DNA from: an uncultured bacterium
GTDB lineage: Bacteria > Omnitrophota > Omnitrophia > Omnitrophales > Aquincolibacteriaceae
Direction of reading: 5' to 3'
Assembly: GCA_964511315.1 (NCBI GenBank)
Contig: CAZEFF010000007.1
Location: 1-60,219 of the forward strand
Length of the DNA stretch: 60,219 bases
Shown here piece after piece: positions 32,075-60,163 of this stretch; the first letter of the stretch is position 1; every line of letters begins with the position of its first letter. The notes under the pieces are model-generated. The model saw only the letters and a list, made by a program, of their open reading frames with translations, ran no database searches and was not told where the DNA came from. The translations under genes and the position numbers were made by a program.

Positions 32075-32760
32075 CCTGCTTTTTCCCTTGTTTTAATGAT
32101 GCCCGCACTATCACGGGGCTTGTTAAGAAGGCTGCGTCCGCGGCTGAAAGGAATGCGCCTGATTTTGAAGTGCTTGTTGTTGATGATGGGAGCAGCGATG
32201 GGAGCCGTGAGATTCTTAGAGCATTAGCTCGGGAGCACGCTTATTTGCGCGTTATTTTTCATGAGAAGAATCTTGGGTATGGCGCCGCTCTGCGCTCGGG
32301 ATTTCGGCATGCTTCAAAAGAATTTATCTTTTATACGGATGGAGACGGACAGTATGACCCGTTAGAACTTGAAAAACTTATTCCGCTCATGACCGGAAAA
32401 GTTGATCTTGTGAATGGGTATAAGTTGACCCGTGAAGATTCCTTGATAAGAATAGTCTTAGGGAATATTTACGCGACGATTGTCCGGAATGTTTTTTCTC
32501 TAACTATTAAAGATCCTGATTGCGACTTCAGGCTCTTTCGACGGGCGGCTTTGCCGGCAGAGCTTAAATGCTCCAGCGGGGCTGTTTGTGTTGAACTCGT
32601 GAAGATGATTCAAAGCGGGGGCGGGGATACCGCGCAATGCCCAGTGAGTCATTTTGGGAGAGAATTTGGGCGGTCTCAGTTTTTTAATTTATATTCAATT
32701 TTCCGCACTTTTCGTGAGCTTGTCGCGCTGAGGAGAAATTTGACGGTGTATGGAGGATAA
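32044..32760 (+). CDS. GT2 glycosyltransferase (polyprenol-phosphate sugar synthase-like)
   Basis: FFPCFND, VVDDGSSDGS, NLGYGAAL, YTDGDGQYD, DPDCDFRL; start moved to ATG 32044. Confidence 0.88.
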   Translation: MEQKKLPGGLTCFFPCFNDARTITGLVKKAASAAERNAPDFEVLVVDDGSSDGSREILRALAREHAYLRVIFHEKNLGYGAALRSGFRHASKEFIFYTDGDGQYDPLELEKLIPLMTGKVDLVNGYKLTREDSLIRIVLGNIYATIVRNVFSLTIKDPDCDFRLFRRAALPAELKCSSGAVCVELVKMIQSGGGDTAQCPVSHFGREFGRSQFFNLYSIFRTFRELVALRRNLTVYGG

Positions 32761-49492: not shown

Positions 49493-51495
49493 ACAGGCAA
49501 AAAAGCAAGGAACTTTTTATTCTTGTTGCCGCTATTTCGGCTTATATTTTCTTTAGATTCCTGACGTTGCTCACGGCCATTGAAAATGTTTCATGGACTG
49601 AGGAATTAGGTATCGGAACCATTGCCCGGGAACTTATCCTGGGTCTTAAAAAGCCGTTTTTCGCTTATCAAATCGACTGCTATGCCGGAGAATCTCTGAT
49701 TTCGGCGTTACTCACAGCGCCATTTTTTAAAGTCTTCGGCTCCCATTTGCTTGTTTTAAAAGCGGTGACGCTCATTTGTTCAGCGCTTACCGTGCTCACC
49801 GCGGCCAATTTTCTTAATCGGCATTTCGGGATTAAAGCCGCTGGCTGGACGATTTTCTTTTTAACTTTTTCACCGCCCGCGTTTACCGCGCATTCGTTAA
49901 TTCCCATGAATGGGCACTCAGAATCGCTGCTGTGGTCAGTACTAATGCTGACTGCTTTCTACGAGTTTATTTTTTCTGAACAGAAGAGTGCTGTTTTTTT
50001 GTGTTTATTTGGAGCGCTAGGCGGTTTCTCATTCTGGTTTTATTACGGATGCGGAATTGCATTTGCGGTATGTCTGATGGTTTGGTTTTTTACAGATCGA
50101 TCCTCGCTCTTTTCCAAGAAGGGTGTATTCGCGATTTTATCATTTTTGGTTGGATTTAGCCCTTGGCTCATTGTTGGGCTAGCGCATTCTTTTGACGGCG
50201 GCAGGTATTTATTTTCAATTTTTCGGAACCCTGATCTTCTCAATTTCGCGCGGTTTTTTACGCGCTTATTTCAGCAGCTATTTCTTTCCCTTCCTCGGGC
50301 ATTCGCATTTCTTCCCCCAGATAATCAATGGCGGGAACTTGGCGCTTACGGATATTTCATATGCTTCATTCTGATATTGGCGTCTTTTTTCCGATTTAAA
50401 GGGCAGAATAAAAAGAATCTTTTCTTTCTAATTTATCCGCTCACATTTTTATTCACGTACGCTATCACGGATTTTGCGATACCCCAGGAATATCCTCAGG
50501 GAACCGTTGAGTTTCGGTACTATACGCCGCTTTACTTTTTCGGGGTGATGCTGCTGGGGCTCTCTTTGAATTCTTGGAATCCAAAAAAGTGGTTTCTTTA
50601 CCCGCTTCTCATTTTTAGCTTAACAGCACAAGGGAATGTTTTTTTTAAAGAGGCATTTGCTGAAGGGATGCGCTACAAAGGCTATTCTTATATCGAGCAT
50701 GGCGTCCGATGGGAAACGGCTGCCAGTAGCGGGAGCCCCTTTTCTGGAGTTGTTAAAAGAGCTTTCGCGTTTCCAGATCCTGAAAGCCGATATTTTTTTT
50801 GGGGCAGGGTTATCGGATGGGAAGGGAATTCCCGCGAGAAAAATCCGCATGATGATCTTTTAAACGAATCTTCGATGCGCGAGATCCCTCTTTCTTGGCG
50901 GCCCCTTGCCGTTGAGGTGATATCATCCTTCCTGACTTTTCATCACGACAAATCAGTTAAAGAGCTGCTCCGGATTGCGGACGCGGTACCTGCCGAATTG
51001 AGAGGGTATTTTTACAAAGGGATCTTTGAAGATTTTATGAGCCGTTCGATTGGGGAAATTCTTGAGGATCCAAAAATTCTAGATCCTGTGGGAACTGAGA
51101 ACCAAAACTGGTTTTATTGGAGTCTTGGAAGCCATTTGGGATACCAGTTTTTTGAAAGTAAAAAAATCAATCCCGATGTCATGGTATTTATTAACCGGGC
51201 AAATACGGAGGCGCAGAAATGGTTTTACCGAGGTCTCGGTAATGCGGCGTTTGGCACGGATCAGCCTACTTTTTTTATTAATACAGATTTTATGCGTCAG
51301 TCAGAAGAAGTGCGGAAAATTGTGCCGAGTGGCTACGAAGGTGATTTCTATTGGGGGGTTGGCTGGGTCATAAAGCTTTTTTTCCGTGAAGACCGTTCCC
51401 GCGCGCGCGATTGGCTGCAGAGAGTCCGTAATCCTTTCAGAGAAAGCGCTGCTCAAGGTTTTGCGGCTTGTGAGGTCTGGTATGGTCTTAACTGA
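49474..51495 (+). CDS. GT-C-fold membrane protein with C-terminal helical repeats (paralog, SWxE type)
   Basis: VSWTEELGIG, YQIDCYAGES, NGHSES, FRYYTP, YKGYSY, FYWGVGW. Confidence 0.7.
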   Translation: MVHAELNRQKSKELFILVAAISAYIFFRFLTLLTAIENVSWTEELGIGTIARELILGLKKPFFAYQIDCYAGESLISALLTAPFFKVFGSHLLVLKAVTLICSALTVLTAANFLNRHFGIKAAGWTIFFLTFSPPAFTAHSLIPMNGHSESLLWSVLMLTAFYEFIFSEQKSAVFLCLFGALGGFSFWFYYGCGIAFAVCLMVWFFTDRSSLFSKKGVFAILSFLVGFSPWLIVGLAHSFDGGRYLFSIFRNPDLLNFARFFTRLFQQLFLSLPRAFAFLPPDNQWRELGAYGYFICFILILASFFRFKGQNKKNLFFLIYPLTFLFTYAITDFAIPQEYPQGTVEFRYYTPLYFFGVMLLGLSLNSWNPKKWFLYPLLIFSLTAQGNVFFKEAFAEGMRYKGYSYIEHGVRWETAASSGSPFSGVVKRAFAFPDPESRYFFWGRVIGWEGNSREKNPHDDLLNESSMREIPLSWRPLAVEVISSFLTFHHDKSVKELLRIADAVPAELRGYFYKGIFEDFMSRSIGEILEDPKILDPVGTENQNWFYWSLGSHLGYQFFESKKINPDVMVFINRANTEAQKWFYRGLGNAAFGTDQPTFFINTDFMRQSEEVRKIVPSGYEGDFYWGVGWVIKLFFREDRSRARDWLQRVRNPFRESAAQGFAACEVWYGLN

Positions 51496-52471
51496 CAAAA
51501 TTAAAAAGGGTATTTTATTGCTAATTTCTTTTGCCGCGGCGCTGATTTTGTGCGAGCTCTATTTGCGGTGGAATCCGCCCATTGGAGTTTATATGGCGAC
51601 CCGCAATATTGTTCAGCTGACGCATTCTGAATTATCTCCGGATTTGATGCTGGGCTATATTCCTAAAGCGGGAATAGCGAAGCCTTTTCGCAACCGTGAA
51701 TTTAATGTTATGGTAAAAATTAATTCGATGAATTTGCGCGATAGAGAATATTCACTCCAAAAGCCTGAAGGTATTGAGCGCATTGCTGTGATGGGGGACT
51801 CTTTTGTTTTCGGCTGGGGCGTTGAGAATGACGAGGTTTTTACAGAGGTTCTTGAAAATCAATATTTAAAAAATACAGAAGTTCTAAATTTCGGGGTATC
51901 CGGTTACGCGGCTTTTCAGGAATTGGAGCGATTAAAAAATGAGGGGCTTCGTTTTCATCCTGATAAAGTGCTTTTTTTTCTTTATGGGACGCCTGAGGGT
52001 TACGTGGATTATGGTGCGGAACAGGAGGAGTTTCAACCAACATTGAAACAAAAGTTTGTTCGGTTTCTCGAGAAAGTATCATATCTTTTCGTGCTCATTC
52101 AGGAAGCTCGAGGATATCTTCAGGTAAGCAAGTTTCCGCCTTCTGATTCGGCGAAATTTGAGGAGCAAGTTAAAAAAGGGTGGGAGGTTTTGGCTGAATT
52201 GAAAGCGCTGGGAGATCAAAACCATTTTGTTCCGATGGTTGTTTATATTCCGACAAAAGATTCGGCGAAAATCGGAAAAGATCCGGATGCTTCCGAAGTT
52301 GCCGAATATTGCCGTGAACGGAGTTTGCCATTTCTGGATTTAACCCCCATGCTTCATGATAGCTGGATAGCAAAGGGAAAATCCCCTTACTTTCGCATTG
52401 ATGATCATTGGAATCGTGAAGGTCATAAGATTGCTGCGATGGCGTTAGAACAGTTTCTTAAAGGAGATTAA
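51482..52471 (+). CDS. SGNH/GDSL hydrolase-fold protein (possible glycan acyl-modifying enzyme)
   Basis: N-terminal TM, GDSFVFG, NFGVSGY, DDHWN; start moved to ATG 51482. Confidence 0.85.
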   Translation: MVLTDKIKKGILLLISFAAALILCELYLRWNPPIGVYMATRNIVQLTHSELSPDLMLGYIPKAGIAKPFRNREFNVMVKINSMNLRDREYSLQKPEGIERIAVMGDSFVFGWGVENDEVFTEVLENQYLKNTEVLNFGVSGYAAFQELERLKNEGLRFHPDKVLFFLYGTPEGYVDYGAEQEEFQPTLKQKFVRFLEKVSYLFVLIQEARGYLQVSKFPPSDSAKFEEQVKKGWEVLAELKALGDQNHFVPMVVYIPTKDSAKIGKDPDASEVAEYCRERSLPFLDLTPMLHDSWIAKGKSPYFRIDDHWNREGHKIAAMALEQFLKGD

Positions 52472-52496
52472 GCTCGGTAATCGATGAGGCTTGTAA

Positions 52497-53045
52497 TCAA
52501 CCGTGTTTTTGCCGTGAATACGGTTTAAATCCCAGCGCAAGGCTTAGCAATGTGCCTAATAAGATTGAGGCTCCGCAAAAACCGATATCTTTCGCGTCTC
52601 CCCATCGCATAGGGATCCAAAGCTGCATGAATTCATCCACAGCGCCTACAAAAAGAGTCAGTAAGGCGGGCCAGAAGTAATATTCCCACGGCGCCCAATC
52701 ATCCGGAAGCGATTGCTGAATCATAATCACCAGAATGGAAAAGATGATGAGATGGAAAAACTCCGTTTTAACCGCGAGAGTATGATAAAAATAAAAATAG
52801 CAGGCTGAAATGGCCGCCAGCAGTCCAAGACTTTTGGGGGTTATTCGCTTTCTATTTTTCCAAATGAGAAATAGTCCAGCGCATGTAAAAATGGTAATTG
52901 CTGCGTAAAGCATGGGGAAAGTGATTCCGAGCGGGTCCAGTATATCCAAAAGGGGGCGGGTTCCAAATGCCATGGAAAGAATGAAGGCAGAGAAGCAAGC
53001 CGGCACAATCCAAAAGTAGGGTTTCAATCTTCGCCATAGTGCCAT
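52497..53045 (-). CDS. VanZ-like membrane protein
   Basis: EFFHLIIFSIL...GAVDEFMQLWIPMRWGDAKD. Confidence 0.72.
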   Translation of the reverse strand: MALWRRLKPYFWIVPACFSAFILSMAFGTRPLLDILDPLGITFPMLYAAITIFTCAGLFLIWKNRKRITPKSLGLLAAISACYFYFYHTLAVKTEFFHLIIFSILVIMIQQSLPDDWAPWEYYFWPALLTLFVGAVDEFMQLWIPMRWGDAKDIGFCGASILLGTLLSLALGFKPYSRQKHG

Positions 53046-53103
53046 TTTAATTATTTACGGCTAACTTCAAAAATCCCTTAAAAAGACGATACTTTTTATA
53101 CCT

Positions 53104-54054
53104 ATGGTTTCTTTCAAAAAAATTTGGCGGCTCAAAGGCCGTGTTTTCTGTATTGCGGCAGTCATGGGTATGTCAGCATGGTCATTTTGGTCGTGGCGCC
53201 ATGTCCGTTATCAGGCGGACGCGATTGTGGCCGTTCAAATCTCCGGCGGTGTTTCTGAGCATTCGAATGTTTTATCTCTCGCCAAAAAAATTTCAAGTTA
53301 TCCGCAAATTGAAAAAGTCGCCCGCGTAATAAACCGGTCAAAGACTAACACAGAAAAAACTGAAGGCGGGCAGTGGAGTGTCCAAATTCTTCAATCAAAA
53401 ATCGATGTTATCCCTCAGGCGGGAACCGGAATGATTATCGTCCGCGCTTACGATCCTAATCAAGCTATCGCGGTTAGGTTGGCAAATGAGGTTGCCCGTC
53501 AGGCAGCCGAGATAAAAGATGTGTCGCTCGAGAATAATCCGGATACAAAAATTAAGTGGAATGAGGCTCAAATTAAAGCAAGTAAGGCTAAAATAGAAGC
53601 GCTTGAGAAAGAAATTTTCGAGTTTCAAAAGAAATGGAGCTGGGCATCTGGTAAAGCAAGGGTGGAAAGCCAGATTATGGCAAAGCAGGGAGAGAGGGCA
53701 TTGCTCTTAGAGAAATTCACGAGCAAGCATCCTGAAATTTTGCGGATCGATGAAGAAATTGAGCAGCTGCAAAAAGAACTTGTGCAAGAAAATTTCCTGG
53801 GTAAGGAATTCGAAGCTTTGGCAGAGCAGCTCAAAAAGGAGCAGAATAATTATTCTCAGGCAGTTCAGTCGGTGGAGCAGGCTCAATTTGAACGGATTTC
53901 TCAGCCTGCCTCAATACGCTTGGTAAGCGCGGCGGCTAGAGCCCATAAAGCTGTGATACCGCCGTCGACCCCGATTATTTGCTTTGCCCTCCTGTTTTGT
54001 CTCTGCGTAGGGGTTGTTACGGCTATTCTTACCGGTTCCAACCGCATTTCCTGA
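53104..54054 (+). CDS. Wzz/GumC-like co-polymerase without a kinase domain
   Basis: Two terminal TMs, coiled coil with FTSKHPEI (cf. Wzc FTEKHPDV), PP before TM2. Confidence 0.7.
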   Translation: MVSFKKIWRLKGRVFCIAAVMGMSAWSFWSWRHVRYQADAIVAVQISGGVSEHSNVLSLAKKISSYPQIEKVARVINRSKTNTEKTEGGQWSVQILQSKIDVIPQAGTGMIIVRAYDPNQAIAVRLANEVARQAAEIKDVSLENNPDTKIKWNEAQIKASKAKIEALEKEIFEFQKKWSWASGKARVESQIMAKQGERALLLEKFTSKHPEILRIDEEIEQLQKELVQENFLGKEFEALAEQLKKEQNNYSQAVQSVEQAQFERISQPASIRLVSAAARAHKAVIPPSTPIICFALLFCLCVGVVTAILTGSNRIS

Positions 54055-54122
54055 GTTTTCTCCCTCCGAGAGCACGTCCCAATGATTCATATTGACTATA
54101 AATGACAATAGATTTTTATTAT

Positions 54123-54167
54123 TGTTAGTTATTGCAATACTAACATTTGTTAGGTATACTTCGTTAG
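54123..54167 (+). promoter_or_regulatory. Sigma70 promoter with overlapping inverted-repeat operator candidates
   Basis: TTGCAA (54132-37), 17 nt, TATACT (54155-60). CTAACA-tt-TGTTAG at 54140-53; TGTTAG at 54123; CGTTAG at 54162; palindrome TATTGCAATA at 54130-39. Confidence 0.65.
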
Positions 54168-54212
54168 TGAACAAAGAATAGGTCATGTTTGTAGGCCCTT
54201 TGTTTAACTACT

Positions 54213-54425
54213 ATGAGCGGATTAACAGATAGACAGAAAGAAGTTCTTAGCTACATCGGCACCTACGCTGGTTCCCACGGTTTTCCTCCTACTCTTCGTG
54301 AAATTGCCCTGCATTTTAGTATCGCGCCGACATCGGTGCTTGGGCATTTGCATGCGTTGGAAAGCAAGGGGTTTATCAGACGTCAGCCGGCAAAATCGCG
54401 CTGTTTGGAAATTGTAAAGCGTTAG
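54213..54425 (+). CDS. LexA-like winged-helix DNA-binding domain only (70 aa)
   Basis: LTDRQKEVLSYI...GFPPTLREIA...TSVLGHLHALESKGFIRR...SR; stop codon before any linker or S24 peptidase domain. Confidence 0.85.
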   Translation: MSGLTDRQKEVLSYIGTYAGSHGFPPTLREIALHFSIAPTSVLGHLHALESKGFIRRQPAKSRCLEIVKR

Positions 54426-54492
54426 ATCAGCTAAGAATCGAAGATCTGTCAGCCCTGAGGTCGCAAGCTTTTCTGTGACTGAGAGGGCGAAG

Positions 54493-54769
54493 CCCCGTTC
54501 GAGACAAATTTATGTACTATGTTTACGTGATACAAAGCGTGAAAGATAACAAGTGGTATACAGGAGTTACAGTTGATTTACGGAACCGATTTAAACAACA
54601 CCAGGCGGGTGAAGTGTCGTCGACGAAAAGCCGAGGTCCTTTCAAGTTGATCTACTACGAAGCGAGCATTGATCGAGAAGACGCCTATGCCCGAGAGCTG
54701 TATTTGAAATCTGGGTTAGGGAAACGGTATCTTAAGAAACGTTTAAATCGGTTCCTGTCTCAAACGGGG
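54493..54769 (+). mobile_element. 277-bp GIY-YIG cassette 1 bounded by terminal inverted repeats
   Basis: CCCCGTTCGAGACA (54493-506) / TGTCTCAAACGGGG (54756-769), 13/14 complementary; flanked by direct repeat CGAAG. Confidence 0.75.
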
Positions 54770-54784
54770 CGAAGCCTCGTATAA
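54512..54784 (+). CDS. GIY-YIG nuclease (UPF0213-like), copy 1
   Basis: YYVYVIQ...WYTG.T.DL..R...H...G...TK.RGP..L.YYE...ARE..LK. Confidence 0.9.
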   Translation: MYYVYVIQSVKDNKWYTGVTVDLRNRFKQHQAGEVSSTKSRGPFKLIYYEASIDREDAYARELYLKSGLGKRYLKKRLNRFLSQTGRSLV

Positions 54785-54844
54785 ACGATGCAGAATTTTG
54801 AAACTCGAAATCAAACAATAAAACCTAACCACGAGGTCTAAAAA

Positions 54845-55558
54845 ATGAAAGTTGTTATTTTATGCGGAGGTAAGGGGACGCGGCTTAAAGAAAAAACGGA
54901 GTCCATGCCTAAGCCTTTAATCGAAATCGGGGGGAGATCAATCCTTTGGCATATTATGAATATTTATAAGGCTCAGGGATTTAAAGAGTTTGTCCTATGC
55001 CTGGGATATAAAGGGCAAATGATCCGGGAATGTTTTGAAAAAGATATGAATAAAGAAGGATGGAAAATCGAATTTGCGGAAACGGGGGAAGATACTCAGA
55101 CGGGCGGACGCGTTAAAAAAATCGAGTCTTTCATTCGTGATGAAAATTTCATGCTGACTTACGGAGACGGCGTTTCGGATATTGATTTGAGCCGGCTCGT
55201 TCAACATCACCAAAAGCACGGCAAAATCGGAACCGTGACAGCCGTGAATCCGCCTTCGCAGTTTGGCCTTCTTGAAATTCAGGGAAATTCTCATGTGAGT
55301 TCTTTTCGTGAAAAACCCACGACAGATCAGTGGATCAATGGGGGGTTCTTTGTTTTTAAAAAGGACTTTTTCAAATATTTAACTGAGGAAGATGTGCTCG
55401 AGAAAAAACCGTTAGAACGTTTGGCGAAAGAAGATCAGCTTGTTGCTTTTCAGCACCGTGGTTATTGGAAGTGCATGGATACCTATAAAGATACAATCGC
55501 GCTTAATGAAATATGGGGCAGTGGTAAGGCTCCATGGGCCCCGTTAGAGACAAACTAA
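54845..55558 (+). CDS. rfbF: Glucose-1-phosphate cytidylyltransferase
   Basis: ILCGGKGTRL...PKPLIEIGG, LCLGYKG, TQTGGRVK, LTYGDGVSD, WKCMDT, KAPW. Confidence 0.88.
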   Translation: MKVVILCGGKGTRLKEKTESMPKPLIEIGGRSILWHIMNIYKAQGFKEFVLCLGYKGQMIRECFEKDMNKEGWKIEFAETGEDTQTGGRVKKIESFIRDENFMLTYGDGVSDIDLSRLVQHHQKHGKIGTVTAVNPPSQFGLLEIQGNSHVSSFREKPTTDQWINGGFFVFKKDFFKYLTEEDVLEKKPLERLAKEDQLVAFQHRGYWKCMDTYKDTIALNEIWGSGKAPWAPLETN

Positions 55559-55815
55559 TGTACTATGTCTATGTTCTGCAGAGTTTGAAAGATAAAAGGT
55601 GGTATACGGGATTTACGGGTGATTTGCGGAACCGATTTAAGGAGCATCAATCGGGCAAAGTGTCTTCAACAAAAGGAAGAGGTCCGTTTCGTTTGATTTA
55701 TTATGAGGCAAGTCTGAATCAAAGGGATGTATCAAACCGGGAAAAATATCTTAAAACAGGGATGGGGAAACGATATTTAAAAAATCGATTAAATCGGTTC
55801 CTGTCTCTAACGGGG
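55539..55815 (+). mobile_element. 277-bp GIY-YIG cassette 2 bounded by perfect 14-bp inverted repeats, inserted in the rfbF 3' end
   Basis: CCCCGTTAGAGACA (55539-552) / TGTCTCTAACGGGG (55802-815), a perfect complement; same length as cassette 1. Confidence 0.8.
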
Positions 55816-55827
55816 TGGAAAGGATAA
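55558..55827 (+). CDS. GIY-YIG nuclease (UPF0213-like), copy 2
   Basis: 63/86 aa identical to copy 1 by hand count; ATG overlaps the rfbF TAA. Confidence 0.9.
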   Translation: MYYVYVLQSLKDKRWYTGFTGDLRNRFKEHQSGKVSSTKGRGPFRLIYYEASLNQRDVSNREKYLKTGMGKRYLKNRLNRFLSLTGWKG

Positions 55828-55828
55828 T

Positions 55829-56812
55829 ATGGGTAAATCAAATCATTTTTGGTATGGCCGTCCGGTCCTTGTAACCGGTATTACCGGGTTTGTTGGGGCG
55901 AATCTTGCGGGAGCTCTTGTGCGTAAAGGAGCCCGCGTGGTTGGAATTTACCGGGATGATGTCGCGGGTTCCGCGCTCGAAGTACTTGGTTTAAAAGAGC
56001 GGGTTACGCTTGTCCATGGTGATTTGCGTGACATTCAAATAATTGAACGGACTTTGAATGAATATTCTATTGAGATTGTATATCACTTAGCAGCTCAGGC
56101 GATAGTTGGAGTCGCGAATCGGTCGCCCATTGCGACATTCCAATCGAATATTGAAGGGACATGGAATTTGCTCGAAGCTTGCCGGCATCAGCAAGGCATC
56201 GAGGCGATTGTCGTTGCTTCGAGTGATAAGGCTTATGGTTCTCACAAAAAACTGCCATACGATGAGACCTTTCCGCTTCAGCCCGAATTTCCTTATGACA
56301 CATCCAAGGCTTGTGCCGATTTAATCGCGCGGAGTTATTTCAAAACTTACGGCCTTCCAATCGTGATTACGCGTTTCGCGAATATCTACGGTCCGGGAGA
56401 TATGAATTTTTCAAGAATCATTCCAGACACCATCCAGAATATTTTGAAGGGGGAGGCTCCGATCATTCGAAGTGACGGAACGCCTGAGCGGGATTATTTA
56501 TACGTCGAAGATGTCGCGGGCCTTTATCTTCTTCTTGCGGAAAACATTGAAAAAGCAAAAGGAGAAGTTTTTAATGCCGGGCATAAAAAACCGTACAGCG
56601 TGAAATTCGTTGTCGACGCACTGCTTAAAATTGGCGGAAAGAAAAAGCTGAAGCCGGTCATTGAAGGAAAAGGGAAGCTGCATGGAGAAATTGACCGGCA
56701 GTGGATGGACGGAGCTAAAGTAAAAAAAATACTCGGCTGGGAGCCCAAAGTATCTCTGGGGGCGGGTTTGAAAAAAACTTTTGCATGGTATAAAGCTTGG
56801 CTGAAGCCCTGA
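55829..56812 (+). CDS. rfbG: CDP-glucose 4,6-dehydratase-like NAD-dependent epimerase/dehydratase
   Basis: VTGITGFVG, HLAAQAIV, SSDKAY, PYDTSKA, NIYGPGD; adjacent to rfbF. Confidence 0.75.
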   Translation: MGKSNHFWYGRPVLVTGITGFVGANLAGALVRKGARVVGIYRDDVAGSALEVLGLKERVTLVHGDLRDIQIIERTLNEYSIEIVYHLAAQAIVGVANRSPIATFQSNIEGTWNLLEACRHQQGIEAIVVASSDKAYGSHKKLPYDETFPLQPEFPYDTSKACADLIARSYFKTYGLPIVITRFANIYGPGDMNFSRIIPDTIQNILKGEAPIIRSDGTPERDYLYVEDVAGLYLLLAENIEKAKGEVFNAGHKKPYSVKFVVDALLKIGGKKKLKPVIEGKGKLHGEIDRQWMDGAKVKKILGWEPKVSLGAGLKKTFAWYKAWLKP

Positions 56813-57951
56813 AAATTCTTTTAGTTACGCACGCGCCGAAAAATGACCGAACGGCTGTCTATCATGCGGCGATTTTACGTGCGAACTATGCCAGGAGTAT
56901 TGGGTGGGAAGCTGAGGTCCTTTGCCCCGGAGATTTATGGTTATCCGCGCGCGCCGGACGCTTTATGCCCATGATCTATCCGATCGAGACAGCGTTATGG
57001 ATGCTTTGCGGGAAAAAGAGATTTGATTTAGTCGTGTTTCATAGTTATTCCGGATGGGTGTTTAATTTAATTAAACGCTTCTTTTTCAGGCAAGGTCCCG
57101 CAGTGATAACCTCTTTTCATGGAGTGGAGGAACTCTATTTTAAAGAGTTGAAGAAAGAAGCTGAGATATCAGGAAAAGAATTGAGCCCCGCGTTTCAATT
57201 TTTCTATTTTAAACTGATGAATGAATGGATCCGCCTCAGTTGCCGGCTATCCGACAAAGTGTTTTGCCTTAATCCGGAAGAAAAAGATTTCTTAATCCGT
57301 GAAGGCTACGTGCCTGGCTCAGATTTGGCCGCCATCCATAATGATGTTGCTCCTGATTTCTTCACTCAAAGAAACTATGCTGAAAAGGTAAAAGTGATTT
57401 TGTATGCCGGACAGTGGCTCCCCATGAAAGGCACCCGCTATCTTGTTGAAGCTTTCGAGTCTATTGCGCGTGAATGCCCCGAAATAGAACTGCATTTGGC
57501 GGGGACATTGGCGGCTGAAGCTCAAGTGCTGAGGGATTTTTCAGTATTCGCGCGGGAGCGCGTCAAAGTGATTCCCTCATTGCCCCATGAAAAAATGCTC
57601 GAATGCTATGGAACTGCTGATCTTTTGATTTTTCCAAGCCTTTATGAAGCGTTCGGCCGCGTTGCCGCGGAAGCGATGGCAGCCGGACTTCCTATCGTTT
57701 CAACAAGGGTCGGAATTGGGCTTGAGATTTTTGAAGATAAAAAAAACTGCATGGTTATTCCTCGAAGGGATGCGGCCGCGATTGTCAGCGCGGTAAAAGT
57801 TTTGCGCGGCGATTTCGCATTGCGCAAAAAGATTGGACAGGCCGCGAAGGTTTCTATCGAGCCCTTCCGCACCGAAATTGTTCTGAAGCAAATCTTCGAT
57901 AAATTTTTATGCACAGTCAAAGAAAGCCGGCTGCGGTATGAACGAAAATAG
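56797..57951 (+). CDS. GT4 (GT-B fold) glycosyltransferase
   Basis: MKG..YLVEA, FPSLYEAFGRVAAEAMAAGLPIVST. Confidence 0.9.
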   Translation: MAEALKILLVTHAPKNDRTAVYHAAILRANYARSIGWEAEVLCPGDLWLSARAGRFMPMIYPIETALWMLCGKKRFDLVVFHSYSGWVFNLIKRFFFRQGPAVITSFHGVEELYFKELKKEAEISGKELSPAFQFFYFKLMNEWIRLSCRLSDKVFCLNPEEKDFLIREGYVPGSDLAAIHNDVAPDFFTQRNYAEKVKVILYAGQWLPMKGTRYLVEAFESIARECPEIELHLAGTLAAEAQVLRDFSVFARERVKVIPSLPHEKMLECYGTADLLIFPSLYEAFGRVAAEAMAAGLPIVSTRVGIGLEIFEDKKNCMVIPRRDAAAIVSAVKVLRGDFALRKKIGQAAKVSIEPFRTEIVLKQIFDKFLCTVKESRLRYERK

Positions 57952-58825
57952 CGCGCTGATCAAGCCGAACCCTGTTTTGGAACTCGGGCGGAAAGTGGCT
58001 CAGCGTCTGCATTGCTGTCATGACGTCATTTCGCTCGATCATACCGCGGTGATCAAAAAGCAAAAAGAATTGGGCGTGCATAGGTTTCCAGGCGGGAAAA
58101 AAAACGGGGAAGAGCCTGTTTTTTTGCTGCGAGTGGATGATTTGCCATCGCCCCATGGAGAGCTCAAGGATTTTTTGCGCTTCCACGAACTTTTGAAAAA
58201 ATATCAGCTGCCTTACTTGTTAGCCGTAACCCCGTTTTGGCAGGGCAGAGCCGCGTTTACGAATGAGGAGGCGGATGTTTTGAAGCGAATTACGCGGGAA
58301 GGGGTTGAGCTGGCCTTGCATGGATTTACCCATCAAAAAATATCCTTGAACATCGCGAGTGAGCTGCTTGGATTGTCTGAGGGATCTCTCAAATTGAAGA
58401 TTAAGTCCGCGGTCGAATACCTTTCTACTTTAGGATGTGACCCGAAGGTGTTTGTGGCCCCTTACAATTCCTATGACCCCGCGACAATACCTGTGCTTTC
58501 AAAATGCTTTTCTGTGCTTTGCGGCGGGCCCGAATCTGTCCGCTCGTTTGGGTACCGTATTCCTTCTTTTTTTCAGGGGAGCTTCTATTTACCGTCCTAT
58601 CGGTATGCGTATGATTTGCGTGATAATCAAATGAAAACGTTTGACCGGTTGATTCAAGCGGCCTCGGGACTAGTGATTCCAATCACCATGCATTGGGCGA
58701 ATGAAGTTAAAGACGGGTTTAAAACCCTTGAGAAAATTATTTTCCGCGTAAAGGGGCGAGTGATTTCTTGGAATGAATTTCTTCAGTCGGTTGACGCAAT
58801 GAAGAGTGCGAAAAATGATGAATAA
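57938..58825 (+). CDS. Polysaccharide deacetylase-like (NodB/DUF2334-type)
   Basis: LRVDD, LALHGFTH, FVAPYN, MHW. Confidence 0.75.
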   Translation: MNENSALIKPNPVLELGRKVAQRLHCCHDVISLDHTAVIKKQKELGVHRFPGGKKNGEEPVFLLRVDDLPSPHGELKDFLRFHELLKKYQLPYLLAVTPFWQGRAAFTNEEADVLKRITREGVELALHGFTHQKISLNIASELLGLSEGSLKLKIKSAVEYLSTLGCDPKVFVAPYNSYDPATIPVLSKCFSVLCGGPESVRSFGYRIPSFFQGSFYLPSYRYAYDLRDNQMKTFDRLIQAASGLVIPITMHWANEVKDGFKTLEKIIFRVKGRVISWNEFLQSVDAMKSAKNDE

Positions 58826-59405
58826 TTTGACCCATTATTTGGCTTGGTGTCTGGGACTGGCAAAGCCTTGGACCTATTATTCTGAGGCGGAATGCGGACT
58901 GCTTGAAAAGTACGCGCGAAATAAAAAGCGGTTAGTCGAAATCGGCTGCTGGCAGGGAGTGAATACGGCAAGGCTCCGCAAGGCAATGCCGCCGGAAGCC
59001 GTATTCTACGCGGTGGATCCTTACCCTAAAGGGAGGTTTGGTGTAAATTTCGCGCAATGGATCGCGGCGAAAGAAGTTGAAAAAATAAAGAATGGAACTC
59101 TGATCTGGGTTCAAAAAACAGATTTAGAGGCGGCCACTTGGATGAAATCTCAGAAAGCCGCTTTGCTGGATTTTATTTTCAGTGATTCGTGTAATTCATA
59201 TGAAGGGTTTAAGGCTTGCTGGGAAGCTTGGAGTCCTTTGCTGGCATCGCAGGGGATTTATGTGCTGGCGAACAGCTGCTCGGACAGTTCAGGGAAAATC
59301 GAAAATGCGGGTAGTGTAAGGTTTACGCGGGATGTGATCATGAAAGATGAGCGCTATGAATTTCTCGAGTCGGCCGGAAGCTTTACGATCATGAGAAAGC
59401 GATGA
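58815..59405 (+). CDS. Class I SAM-dependent methyltransferase (Methyltransf_24-like)
   Basis: VEIGCWQG, YAVDPY, LDFIFSD..NSYE. Confidence 0.72.
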   Translation: MMNNLTHYLAWCLGLAKPWTYYSEAECGLLEKYARNKKRLVEIGCWQGVNTARLRKAMPPEAVFYAVDPYPKGRFGVNFAQWIAAKEVEKIKNGTLIWVQKTDLEAATWMKSQKAALLDFIFSDSCNSYEGFKACWEAWSPLLASQGIYVLANSCSDSSGKIENAGSVRFTRDVIMKDERYEFLESAGSFTIMRKR

Positions 59406-60163
59406 ACTCATTTTCAAAAACTCTGGATACATGCCCCTTTCTCTTTCGCCGGCATAAATTCGTGAAACCGCTTCTCGCTTTATCCTTATGCGGACCTATC
59501 CAAGAGATTGAATTCAATGACGGGGCAAGGCTGTACGGGGATATCCGCGAACCCTTTCCGCGAAGCTATTTTTTAACAAAGTTTTACAATACGGAATATT
59601 GCGCGTTGGCCCGCGCGTTTATGGCGAAAGGCGGCCATTATTTTGATATTGGAGCCAATTATGGATTCTGTTCTTTCGGGATTCTTGGAGATGGAACCCT
59701 TTTAAAGGATGCTGAGCTTCATCTTTTCGAAGCTAACCCCGCAATGGCTGAGCTGCTGCAGCGTTCCGCGAAGATGTTTTATCCGAGGCATTCGATTCAT
59801 ATTGAAAACGCGGCAGTCTGTAATCGAAATGGGGAGTCCGGTTTTTTTCTTAAAAATGGACATCTTGGAGGGTCGTATTTATCGGCTGAGGGCAAGCTGA
59901 AAGTCCGTAACGTGACTTTGGACGGCTATTTCGAGTTCAATAAAATTCACGAAGCCGTGTTCATGAAAATGGATATTGAGGGCGCTGAATCCCTTGCCTT
60001 AGACGGCGGGAAGAAAATTTTTTCCGAAGGCCGTGTCCGGGCTCTTTATATTGAAGTCGCGGCTGAAACGCTCAAGAAATTCAATACGGCTCCGGATCAG
60101 CTTATCAATAAAATCTATTGTCGCTCAACTTATGAACTCCATTCTTGTGCCAACAATCACTAA
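59402..60163 (+). CDS. FkbM-family methyltransferase
   Basis: FDIGANYG, FEANP, ENAAV, TLDGY, KMDIEGAE. Confidence 0.88.
   Translation: MNSFSKTLDTCPFLFRRHKFVKPLLALSLCGPIQEIEFNDGARLYGDIREPFPRSYFLTKFYNTEYCALARAFMAKGGHYFDIGANYGFCSFGILGDGTLLKDAELHLFEANPAMAELLQRSAKMFYPRHSIHIENAAVCNRNGESGFFLKNGHLGGSYLSAEGKLKVRNVTLDGYFEFNKIHEAVFMKMDIEGAESLALDGGKKIFSEGRVRALYIEVAAETLKKFNTAPDQLINKIYCRSTYELHSCANNH

Follow-up and report, generated by a model that had tools for sequence, protein, structure and literature searches.

A probable minimal mobile element coding for a GIY-YIG nuclease, inserted at the 3' end of rfbF and at many other gene boundaries

The stretch of DNA analysed here (60,219 nt, contig CAZEFF010000007.1 of an uncultured Omnitrophota bacterium, called the window in this text) presents an unusual arrangement. 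A small nuclease gene separates rfbF, which codes for a glucose-1-phosphate cytidylyltransferase, from an rfbG-like gene. The tail of RfbF is not that of its relatives, and the nuclease gene ends on what appears to be the former end of rfbF. A second nuclease gene of the same kind is found before rfbF. How did these genes come to exchange their ends, and why does the operon seem to be unharmed? The explanation we favour, with considerable confidence, is the insertion of a mobile element which swapped the tails of two genes and which belongs to a family built for gene boundaries. As judged from the sequences compared below, both insertions in the window are copies of a minimal selfish mobile element whose only gene codes for an 86-residue nuclease. 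The copy at the 3' end of rfbF (copy 2) has the following features, P1 and P2 being two paired helices which are described below:

54845 to 55558, forward strand: rfbF (glucose-1-phosphate cytidylyltransferase), native up to codon 231 (55537), with its last six codons and stop derived from the element.
55535 to 55537, forward strand: TGG codon for Trp231 of rfbF.
55535 to 55538, forward strand: left copy of the target duplication, TGG, or TGGG if the duplication has 4 bp with one mismatch.
55539 to 55815, forward strand: copy 2 of the element, 277 bp, from the C-run to the G-run.
55539 to 55552, forward strand: 5' arm of P1 (left end), CCCCGTTAGAGACA, which in the rfbF frame encodes the new tail (A)PLET.
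55558 to 55827, forward strand: nuclease gene, 89 amino acids, 86 from the element and WKG from the flank, with the catalytic residues intact.
55628 to 55640, forward strand: 5' arm of P2, GGAACCGATTTAA, codons R-N-R-F-K around the catalytic Arg.
55789 to 55801, forward strand: 3' arm of P2, TTAAATCGGTTCC, codons L-N-R-F-L, adjoining the 3' arm of P1.
55802 to 55815, forward strand: 3' arm of P1 (right end), TGTCTCTAACGGGG, which encodes the last nuclease residues LSLTG.
55816 to 55827, forward strand: right copy of the duplication (TGG/TGGA) and displaced rfbF tail AAA GGA TAA, now the end of the nuclease gene.
55829 to 56812, forward strand: rfbG-like CDP-glucose 4,6-dehydratase gene, whose ATG lies one base past the shared stop.

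An initial annotation of this locus had proposed that rfbF recovers a normal ending when the insert is taken out. This can be read directly in the sequence: Without the insert and one copy of TGG, which is present again at 55816–55818, the gene ends in AAG GCT CCA TGG AAA GGA TAA (KAPWKG*), and the ATG of rfbG follows one base further on. In its present form the open reading frame (ORF) of rfbF ends in GCC CCG TTA GAG ACA AAC TAA (APLETN*), a tail supplied by the left arm. The rfbF TAA (55556–55558) and the nuclease ATG (55558–55560) have one A in common. There is no stop in the nuclease frame inside the element, the protein ends in ...LSLTG-WKG* on the old rfbF stop. The annotation had described the restored ending, the overlap and the exchange of stops, it only placed copy 2 at 55538–55815 (278 bp), which includes one extra G. 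The duplication is probably the 4 bp typical of the family (TGGA) with one mismatch (TGGG at the left), which does not affect the reconstruction. The target is ATGGAA, a one-base variant of ATGAA, two codons ahead of the rfbF stop. It lies 8 bases 5' of the true rfbG start and also 5' of its ribosome-binding site, AAGGA: This Shine–Dalgarno sequence of rfbG is contained, intact, within the displaced rfbF tail.

None of 119 RfbF homologues ends in PLETN or APLETN. Their tails follow an APW-K-x-W consensus: In most of them A-P-W is followed by K/R-x-W and then by 0–9 residues more. The Lys of the consensus is retained in the reconstructed KAPWKG*. The match between RfbF and TIGR02623 (an NCBIfam equivalog; 276.9 bits, cut-off 300.25) covers residues 1–231 and ends at position 252 of the 255 in the profile, that is, at the junction, because the tail of RfbF has been replaced. 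Since the tails of close relatives vary, RfbF probably keeps its function, and the tail swap was probably a small event, harmless to the host.

Related loci without the nuclease are also available. L163, a 114-kb contig of a metagenome-assembled genome (MAG), and L164, from the sample SRR16481187, code for an RfbF (P0128) which is 70% identical to that of the window. Their gene order is that of the window: chain-length determinant, 76-amino acid protein with a LexA DNA-binding domain, rfbF, rfbG and glycosyltransferase. No nuclease gene is found in them at either of the two window positions. At the copy 2 site, L163 reads GCG CCG TGG AAA GTC TGG..., where TGGAAAG is unbroken, and L164 likewise has CCG TGG AAA GTC. 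In L162, a 77% relative, the site reads CCC TGG GTT AAA, also unbroken and without the 278 bp. This comparison is a direct reading of the sequences, as MAFFT misplaced the diverged flanks. The sample SRR16481187 also holds a window-like contig, L081, with both cassettes, while the syntenic L164 (about 70% RfbF identity) has neither. Both come from one sequencing run, therefore carrier and non-carrier populations coexist.

The other insertion in the window, copy 1, has these features:

54488 to 54492, forward strand: left CGAAG target duplication.
54493 to 54769, forward strand: copy 1 of the element, in the spacer between the LexA DNA-binding domain gene and rfbF.
54493 to 54506 and 54756 to 54769, forward strand: arms of P1.
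54512 to 54784, forward strand: nuclease gene, 90 amino acids, ending in ...LSQTG-RSLV*; PF01541 match with E 4e-17.
54582 to 54596 and 54741 to 54755, forward strand: arms of P2.
54770 to 54774, forward strand: right CGAAG target duplication.

L163 contains CTGAGAGGGCGAAGC just once at the orthologous place, where the window reads CTGAGAGGGCGAAG[element]CGAAGCC; therefore, the CGAAG of copy 1 is a genuine target duplication. Copy 1 also borrows a stop from its flank, as had been annotated: Four codons (RSLV*) are read beyond the element. The identity between both copies is 73% over 278 nt, and each one is the nearest relative of the other (72.7%). Two compensatory states of P2 pairs are found in the window copies alone, in an alignment of 70 copies. 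Their sequences indicate that they are old sister copies. A metagenome scan for the P2 variant specific to the window gave no matches, therefore this sub-lineage would be rare. The arm motif is found four times in the window (0.6 expected). Matches of 9 nt with an arm at 32358 and 55408 lack a partner arm and were rejected as chance, as about one such match is expected.

The two nuclease ORFs of the window match PF01541 (GIY-YIG) with E 4e-17 (copy 1) and 3e-13 (copy 2). The scores are 62.8 and 50.3 bits, versus a cut-off of 22.6, and this is the only Pfam domain above cut-off in the 86-amino acid protein. In 45 members of the family, Y5, Y16, G18, R26, H30 and E62 are invariant, and N76 is conserved in at least 90%; all these residues are present in both window copies. 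An AlphaFold model (predicted local distance difference test score, pLDDT, 93.8) has the order E-E-H-E-H-H, a three-stranded sheet with flanking helices. The nearest solved folds are the UPF0213 protein BH0048 (1ZG2), the Slx1 nuclease domain and the catalytic domain of I-TevI. Among solved structures, BH0048 is also the closest in sequence (E 1.6e-11, with 40% identity in the N-terminal 63 residues). A match with TIGR01453 is weak (21.8 bits, cut-off 56, profile positions 4–82 of 215). Both the sequence and the predicted fold thus correspond to a single-domain GIY-YIG nuclease of the UPF0213/Slx1 type. A search for homologues gave 6048 protein clusters. Most proteins in the best 120 clusters have exactly 86 amino acids and end in ...KRFLSLTG, the rest have unrelated tails of 2–38 residues or short N-terminal extensions. 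The C-terminal helix, KRYLKNRLKRFLSLTG, which is coded by the helix arms, is specific to the element family.

A scan of genomes, one per species, gave at least 406 confirmed stretches. In the best 80 of them, the hosts include Patescibacteria, Omnitrophota, Planctomycetota, Desulfobacterota, Nitrospirota, Elusimicrobiota, Bdellovibrionales, a gammaproteobacterium and a Clostridia MAG, among others, with amino acid identities of 65–77% across phyla. The 73 copies analysed span more than ten phyla, and most hosts have small, gene-dense genomes. Several copies may be present in one genome, as in the window, L017/L041 and L043/L060. On the other hand, tblastn searches with the family consensus found no match in cultured phages, and in plasmids just yazA-type genes with less than 50% identity.

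All these elements share the ends [C/T]CCCGTTAGAG...CTCTAACGGG[G/A]. When the boundary is set at the terminal Y-R pair, 71 distinct junctions are obtained. Exact 4 bp direct repeats are present in 25 of them, repeats of at least 4 bp in 27 and repeats of 3–6 bp in 33; there is no repeat in 29. Permutation of the flanks among loci gives a mean of 9 and a maximum of 16 junctions with repeats of at least 4 bp, versus the 27 observed. The repeat is TGAA in 18 copies, and the base before it is A in all 18. Other repeats are TGAG, TTTA, TCAA, TTGA, CTGG, CGAAG and TTATGA: Such diversity means that the repeats are target DNA, not element DNA. We have tried to fit all junctions to a single rule. A fixed 4-bp duplication, a TA duplication, insertion in the middle of a TTYA/TRAA palindrome and an IS608-like rule (left flank from the target, right tetranucleotide from the element) were all rejected, each fits just a subset.

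We have also detected 17 miniature copies without ORF at the analysed loci. They have 47–126 bp and the same ends, and about half of them are flanked by 4-bp direct repeats. They are often beside full copies or nested in them; none is found in the window. One of them, in L051, retains both P2 arms as a local hairpin. They are listed here by locus:

L003: 100–146; L006: 2283–2329; L010: 3428–3521.
L017: 1980–2076, 2873–2974, 3253–3359 and 3396–3504.
L022: 1547–1617; L039: 2029–2094; L047: 918–1039 and 1394–1496.
L048: 1634–1754; L051: 722–847; L061: 2830–2943.
L066: 3565–3680; L072: 2864–2928 and 4340–4407.

By their ends and flanks, they appear as the non-autonomous derivatives expected of a transposon family. 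In some loci a copy lies in the right arm of another one or directly beside it, or a right-end remnant, CTCTAACGGGATGAAT, is found just left of a full copy. These nested or tandem arrangements, which suggest that the junctions of the elements are themselves good targets, are found at:

L017: 3240–3260; L051: 700–725; L047: 918–1039.
L080: 2960–2980; L050: 2970–2981.

The ends of the element had been described in the initial annotation as terminal inverted repeats (TIRs). They are indeed complementary, but they are not a stand-alone repeat: They form one of the two covarying helices of a single-strand structure. RNAalifold finds both helices in the alignment of 70 copies. P1 joins one end to the other by 13–15 bp, 99% paired over the 70 copies. 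P2 (13 bp) pairs the codons R-K-R-F-K, around the catalytic Arg, with the codons L-K-R-F-L just left of the right end. In copy 2 the P1 arms, CCCCGTTAGAGACA and TGTCTCTAACGGGG, are complementary at 14 of 14 positions, and those of P2 at 13 of 13. The 3' arms of both helices are one base apart in the family alignment, which gives a stacked rod of about 27 bp. The rod has a bulge of about 85 nt on one strand (ribosome site, ATG and first 23 codons) and a loop of about 150 nt.

The conservation of these helices is very high. Of 1820 cells in the alignment, 97.1% are paired, and 14 of the 26 pairs have compensatory double changes (178 cells). Not a single one of 500 shuffles is as good, and pairing with slid partners does not exceed 49%. 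Synonymous third positions which are 165 nt apart covary: AAA:CGT versus AAG:CGC, and CGC:AAG versus CGT:AAA. When the Ser of LSLTG is replaced by A, F, V or T, matching changes are found in the non-coding left arm. This covariation indicates that the conserved trait is pairing, not the peptide. Miniature copies keep P1, usually without P2; therefore P1 would be the cis site for mobility. P2 would either zip together the distant arms of the long copy or serve the expression of the ORF.

Do these helices act in DNA or in RNA? The pairing statistics and the z-scores lean towards a DNA structure. It is doubtful, in our opinion, that P1 and P2 act in the messenger RNA, where they might loop out the cassette, gate the translation of the nuclease or be processed by RNase III, while mobility depends on something else. 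RNA folding does yield both helices as a 28-bp stack. In addition, in the TGAA class the host Shine–Dalgarno sequence lies left of the element and the host ATG right of it, so P1 would rejoin them in the transcript, and the lack of P2 in most miniatures looks as if this helix served ORF expression. Nevertheless, departures of the G:U type are not in excess over those of the A:C type (about 28 versus 25), which argues against a purely RNA structure. The z-score of the fold is stronger with DNA parameters (−4.2) than with RNA parameters (−2.5), and a scan of the whole window with Rfam 15 gave no match at the gathering threshold. Moreover, the miniatures are non-coding and keep P1, so at least this helix would be a cis mobility site.

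The position of the element among host genes is far from indifferent. The initial annotation had suggested that the element is shaped for gene ends and for translational coupling, and the 73 copies show a strong bias in both position and orientation which supports it. The downstream gene is on the same strand in 63 cases versus 5, the upstream gene in 52 versus 9. In 54 of 73 copies (74%), the start of a co-oriented ORF (60 codons or more) lies between −1 and +20 nt from the right end, and in 27 it lies exactly there (+0 or +1). These 27 junctions read ...ACG GGA TGA Ax: The last base of the element and the duplicated TG rebuild the host ATG, and the TGA in ATGA stops the nuclease. The last G of the element has turned the host ATG into GTG in two copies. 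A stop right after the last codon of the element is found in 51 of 72 nuclease genes (71%), 35 of them with TGA, 14 with TAA and two with TAG. The chance level in an AT-rich flank would be 5–10%, as a rough guess. Read-through into the flank, as in both window copies, is the minority state (29%).

The left end behaves in a similar way. About 25 co-oriented upstream ORFs have their stop within the left arm; in 16 cases it is the TAG of CCC CGT TAG. In three loci checked by hand (L025, L042 and L043), removal of the element places the own stop of the upstream gene (TAA/TGA) at the right junction. From these sequences, the nuclease took the host stop and the host took the TAG of the arm, which is the commonest form of the swap found in rfbF. 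Some ten copies lack the ATG at its usual position, and their frame opens on a duplicated host ATG 6 bases left of the element. Among them, L023, L034, L073, L079, L028, L040 and L066 begin with MNPVRD... or MNTVRD..., the frame running through the left arm. As read, the copies without ATG form one open frame from end to end, with neither start nor stop of their own.

Copy 2 has a comparable feature. The ATG within CC ATG G of rfbF (55534) is in the nuclease frame and opens a 97-amino acid ORF, MGPVRDKL-MYYVY... (window 55534–55560). It appears to mirror the MNPVRD start of the copies without ATG, and the copy 2 target looks like a pseudo start codon. In L013 and L070, with TTT/TTTA duplications, the nuclease frame continues for 188 and 126 codons, respectively, into the downstream gene, which predicts nuclease–host fusion proteins. 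A general translation of the left arm in the nuclease frame was considered and rejected: The length of the linker between left arm and ATG has no preference modulo 3 (28/25/19).

The arms can thus be read as codons: The left one carries TAG in one frame, the right one codes for the last five residues of the nuclease. To judge from these junctions, many copies of the element have no stop of their own, and some have no start either. They then borrow a duplicated host ATG, and a host stop or the TGA in A/TGAA. Neither a terminator nor a convincing promoter was found when the element was scanned.

We consider it unlikely that all this results from nearly random insertion, with the position at gene ends left by purifying selection in compact genomes and no shaping of the element. 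Such genomes, small and gene-dense in most hosts, would tolerate insertions at boundaries alone, TGAA and TAAA abound in AT-rich DNA, permuted flanks already match quite often (mean 9 of 71), and the linker has no frame preference, as described above. Random insertion does not account for a right end which coincides to the base with the host ATG in 27 of 73 copies, nor for an orientation of 63:5 in an element with symmetric ends. The excess of abutting stops over the rough expectation and the A which always precedes TGAA also speak against it. The same is true of the copies which have lost their start codon and use that of the host, and of arms which serve both as codons and as a stop. Target choice ((A)TGAA/TRAA) and purifying selection may both have a share in this bias.

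A special case is an ORF6N gene, split in five lineages before an internal Met (...AIRxL/M.PPE.PK...). A C-terminal remnant of 31 codons starts right after the nuclease stop and is probably translated separately. Uninterrupted relatives (L082, L083) read CTT ATG GCC CCG. The MAGs with the split gene are labelled as Planctomycetes, Syntrophales, Scalinduaceae, Schekmanbacteria and Desulfacyla, and the loci are:

L007: 2513–3019, split ORF6N gene.
L008, L015 and L019: split ORF6N genes.
L071: 2519–3358, split ORF6N gene.

Either this composite travels as a unit or the site has been invaded again. Repeated occupation of one site would be expected of a free-standing homing endonuclease gene, spread by double-strand-break repair into cognate empty alleles, without transposition and with paired ends which are incidental. 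Downstream genes shared by L005/L011/L016 and by L028/L040/L066 and the 29 of 71 junctions without duplication point in the same direction, and GIY-YIG is a classic homing endonuclease fold (TIGR01453 as a weak match, I-TevI among the fold matches). Even so, homing appears quite improbable. It does not fit dozens of unrelated sites with diverse 4-bp duplications, the real CGAAG duplication against an orthologous empty site, nor ORF-less miniatures scattered nearby. There is no DNA-binding domain beyond the 86-amino acid catalytic core, and homing does not require the complementary ends which are so strongly selected.

Finally, an ordinary resident gene of the rfb operon, a repair protein of the UPF0213/YazA type with a local regulatory inverted repeat, has in its favour that UPF0213 is the best match among solved structures and cultured organisms (BH0048, E 1.6e-11; B. 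subtilis yazA, 44%), but it is refuted by the comparative data: syntenic operons without the nuclease, two copies 1 kb apart in unrelated positions, unrelated neighbours in 70 other genomes, target duplications at both sides and a truncated conserved RfbF tail.

We return to the insertion of a mobile element suited to gene boundaries, and to how it might work. The operon would remain one transcript, with ribosomes passed from gene to gene, so that the nuclease would be expressed for free and at a low cost for the host. The nuclease would recognise the branched P1/P2 structure in single-stranded DNA (ssDNA), as Ssn does with NTS hairpins and Slx1 with branched DNA. It might then cut at the base of the helix and at targets of the T(G/A)AA type; candidate empty targets are GCTCCATGGAAAGGATAA or xxATGAAx. 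Host repair would fill and ligate, often leaving a 4-bp duplication, and miniatures without ORF, with their ends alone, would be moved in trans. Taken by itself, this mechanism of ssDNA cutting is a tentative suggestion, and we would sooner expect it to be wrong than right.

Several points weigh against our explanation as a whole. The window copies are just 73% identical, so they are old and may be inactive now. To our knowledge, GIY-YIG enzymes are hydrolases without strand-transfer activity, therefore the joining step has no known catalyst. We infer the lack of polarity from the absence of terminator and promoter and from the overlapping stop and start codons. The similar number of G:U and A:C departures does not by itself prove a DNA structure, and P2, absent from most miniatures, is dispensable in cis for whatever moves them. 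The 29 junctions without repeat have a left flank TTYA or CTYG and a right flank TRAA (TGAA/TAAA); therefore, one fixed-stagger mechanism cannot cover all copies. The empty locus belongs to a different species, with about 70% RfbF identity. The reconstructed empty rfbF/rfbG junction, searched for in metagenomes by exact patterns which left third positions degenerate, gave no matches. A look-up of the exact window RfbG protein gave just the same filled arrangement (in SRR16481187), without an empty site from the same species. No transposition event, excision product or site both filled and empty within a population has been seen.

The surroundings of the two copies correspond to a surface-polysaccharide cluster (window 51386–60163). 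It contains an ORF at 51386–52471, a Wzz-like chain-length protein, rfbF, rfbG, a glycosyltransferase, a possible deacetylase and two methyltransferase-like ORFs. The Pfam scan covered rfbF, rfbG and the LexA DNA-binding domain ORF; the Wzz-like and glycosyltransferase labels come from synteny with Pfam tags of L163, the others from translations. A stand-alone protein with a LexA DNA-binding domain (70–76 amino acids, no peptidase domain) is coded directly 5' of rfbF and is conserved in the syntenic relatives:

Window, 54213 to 54425, forward strand: LexA DNA-binding domain gene.
L163, 1148–1378: LexA DNA-binding domain gene.
L164, 581–811: LexA DNA-binding domain gene.

It is not a product of the insertion and is possibly a dedicated regulator of the cluster.

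The value of the rfbF event lies in what it reveals about the workings of a minimal mobile element, one that is very abundant and apparently undescribed. If our explanation is correct, an 86-residue nuclease which lacks a DNA-binding domain and any known means of strand transfer sustains a mobile element in thousands of genomes, a plausible ancestral lifestyle for the recently discovered Ssn-type single-strand nucleases. Its harmlessness would be distinct: A seat at codon boundaries, translatable arms and swaps of stops and starts allow dense operons in tiny genomes to carry the element without loss of function. It would also explain several oddities of annotation in genomes of candidate phyla, such as strange C-terminal tails, short N-terminal extensions, split genes (ORF6N) and proteins mislabelled as "excinuclease ABC subunit C". 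From a technological point of view, a compact nuclease with a freely covarying stem which looks programmable is the type of reagent that the authors of the Ssn study proposed for ssDNA tools.

Full-text searches of the literature returned nothing on this family other than the Ssn paper and a brief reference to GIY-YIG transfer from Patescibacteria. These elements are apparently undescribed Ssn-like selfish GIY-YIG units. We would go further only with caution, at somewhat less than an even chance: They may be a new class, the smallest autonomous mobile element of prokaryotes (about 277 bp), with a structure-specific 86-residue nuclease, a branched ssDNA substrate formed by the ends and an internal coding segment, and start/stop codon targeting ((A)TGAA/TRAA). 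It would be a translated, codon-compatible "cistron parasite" which takes promoters, ribosome-binding sites, starts and stops from the host, spread horizontally over more than ten phyla, mainly in the candidate phyla radiation, with miniature derivatives.

The closest published system is the Ssn family, with its NTS-ssnA-NTS units (SsnA, NMB0047, of Neisseria meningitidis). Ssn proteins are 94-amino acid, single-domain GIY-YIG nucleases of ssDNA, guided by hairpins, and their genes have hairpin repeats at both sides (Chenal et al. 2025, PMC11893778). Binding of SsnA to the stem requires ssDNA, the cut is made beside the stem, and the stem may consist of two separate strands; the authors found the NTS-ssnA-NTS architecture "identical to insertion sequences" and suggested domestication (PMC11893778). 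Our element resembles Ssn in its single GIY-YIG domain of about 90 amino acids without a separate DNA-binding domain, in a gene bracketed by stem-forming inverted repeats and in stems which begin YCCCG...CGGGR in both cases. There are also clear differences. Each end of the element supplies one half of the stem, with 250 nt between them, whereas Ssn has a local hairpin at each side. The right half-stem and the second helix lie inside the coding sequence, and there is no array of solo repeats in the window. The SRM motif, HGTCWY...RNCYNB, is not found in the window nor within 150 nt of about 70 copies, and only once in 333 kb of flanks. The hosts are mostly candidate phyla, not Pseudomonadati, and insertion at start or stop codons, target duplications and miniature copies distinguish the element from Ssn as described in PMC11893778. 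Both sequence and fold point to UPF0213 as the nearest solved relative of the nuclease.

As in classical insertion sequences with TIRs, there are terminal inverted repeats, multiple copies per genome and non-autonomous derivatives (17 miniatures). No transposase of a known class (DDE, HUH, serine or tyrosine) is found in the element, whose only ORF is the GIY-YIG nuclease. IS200/IS605 and REP/RAYT elements share with it a very small size, ends which form single-strand secondary structures, a strong orientation bias, short oriented target words at the left end, some junctions without duplication and repeats without gene which are mobilised or generated in trans. Nevertheless, they depend on a HUH/Y1 transposase which transfers strands covalently, and they have subterminal hairpins at each end and no TIRs, while this element has a GIY-YIG hydrolase, ends which pair with each other and, in about 40% of copies, 4-bp duplications. 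Membership in IS200/IS605 was thus rejected: There is no ORF for a HUH Y1 transposase (TnpA), and the ends pair mutually.

Phage GIY-YIG homing genes (Seg, Mob and the I-TevI domain) are also selfish, have the same fold and lie between conserved genes, co-transcribed and often with overlapping stop and start. However, they have 200–250 amino acids, with a linker and a DNA-binding domain, and one cognate site, with no paired ends, duplications or miniatures. A classical homing endonuclease was rejected in view of the 86 amino acids without DNA-binding domain, the many sites and the duplications. The family is not an integron cassette either. UPF0213 (BH0048/YazA/YhbQ) and the Slx1 domain are the closest in sequence and fold. 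The Slx1 nuclease acts on branched DNA in a structure-specific manner, as would suit a branched P1/P2 substrate, whereas UPF0213 genes are single-copy residents not known to have paired ends. Finally, miniature inverted-repeat transposable elements (MITEs) and the palindromic elements of Rickettsia are also short and palindromic, with TIRs and short T/A-rich duplications, and the latter are tolerated in reading frames since they can be translated, like the arms described here. They are non-coding; in our case, miniatures coexist with a full copy which carries the candidate mobilising nuclease.

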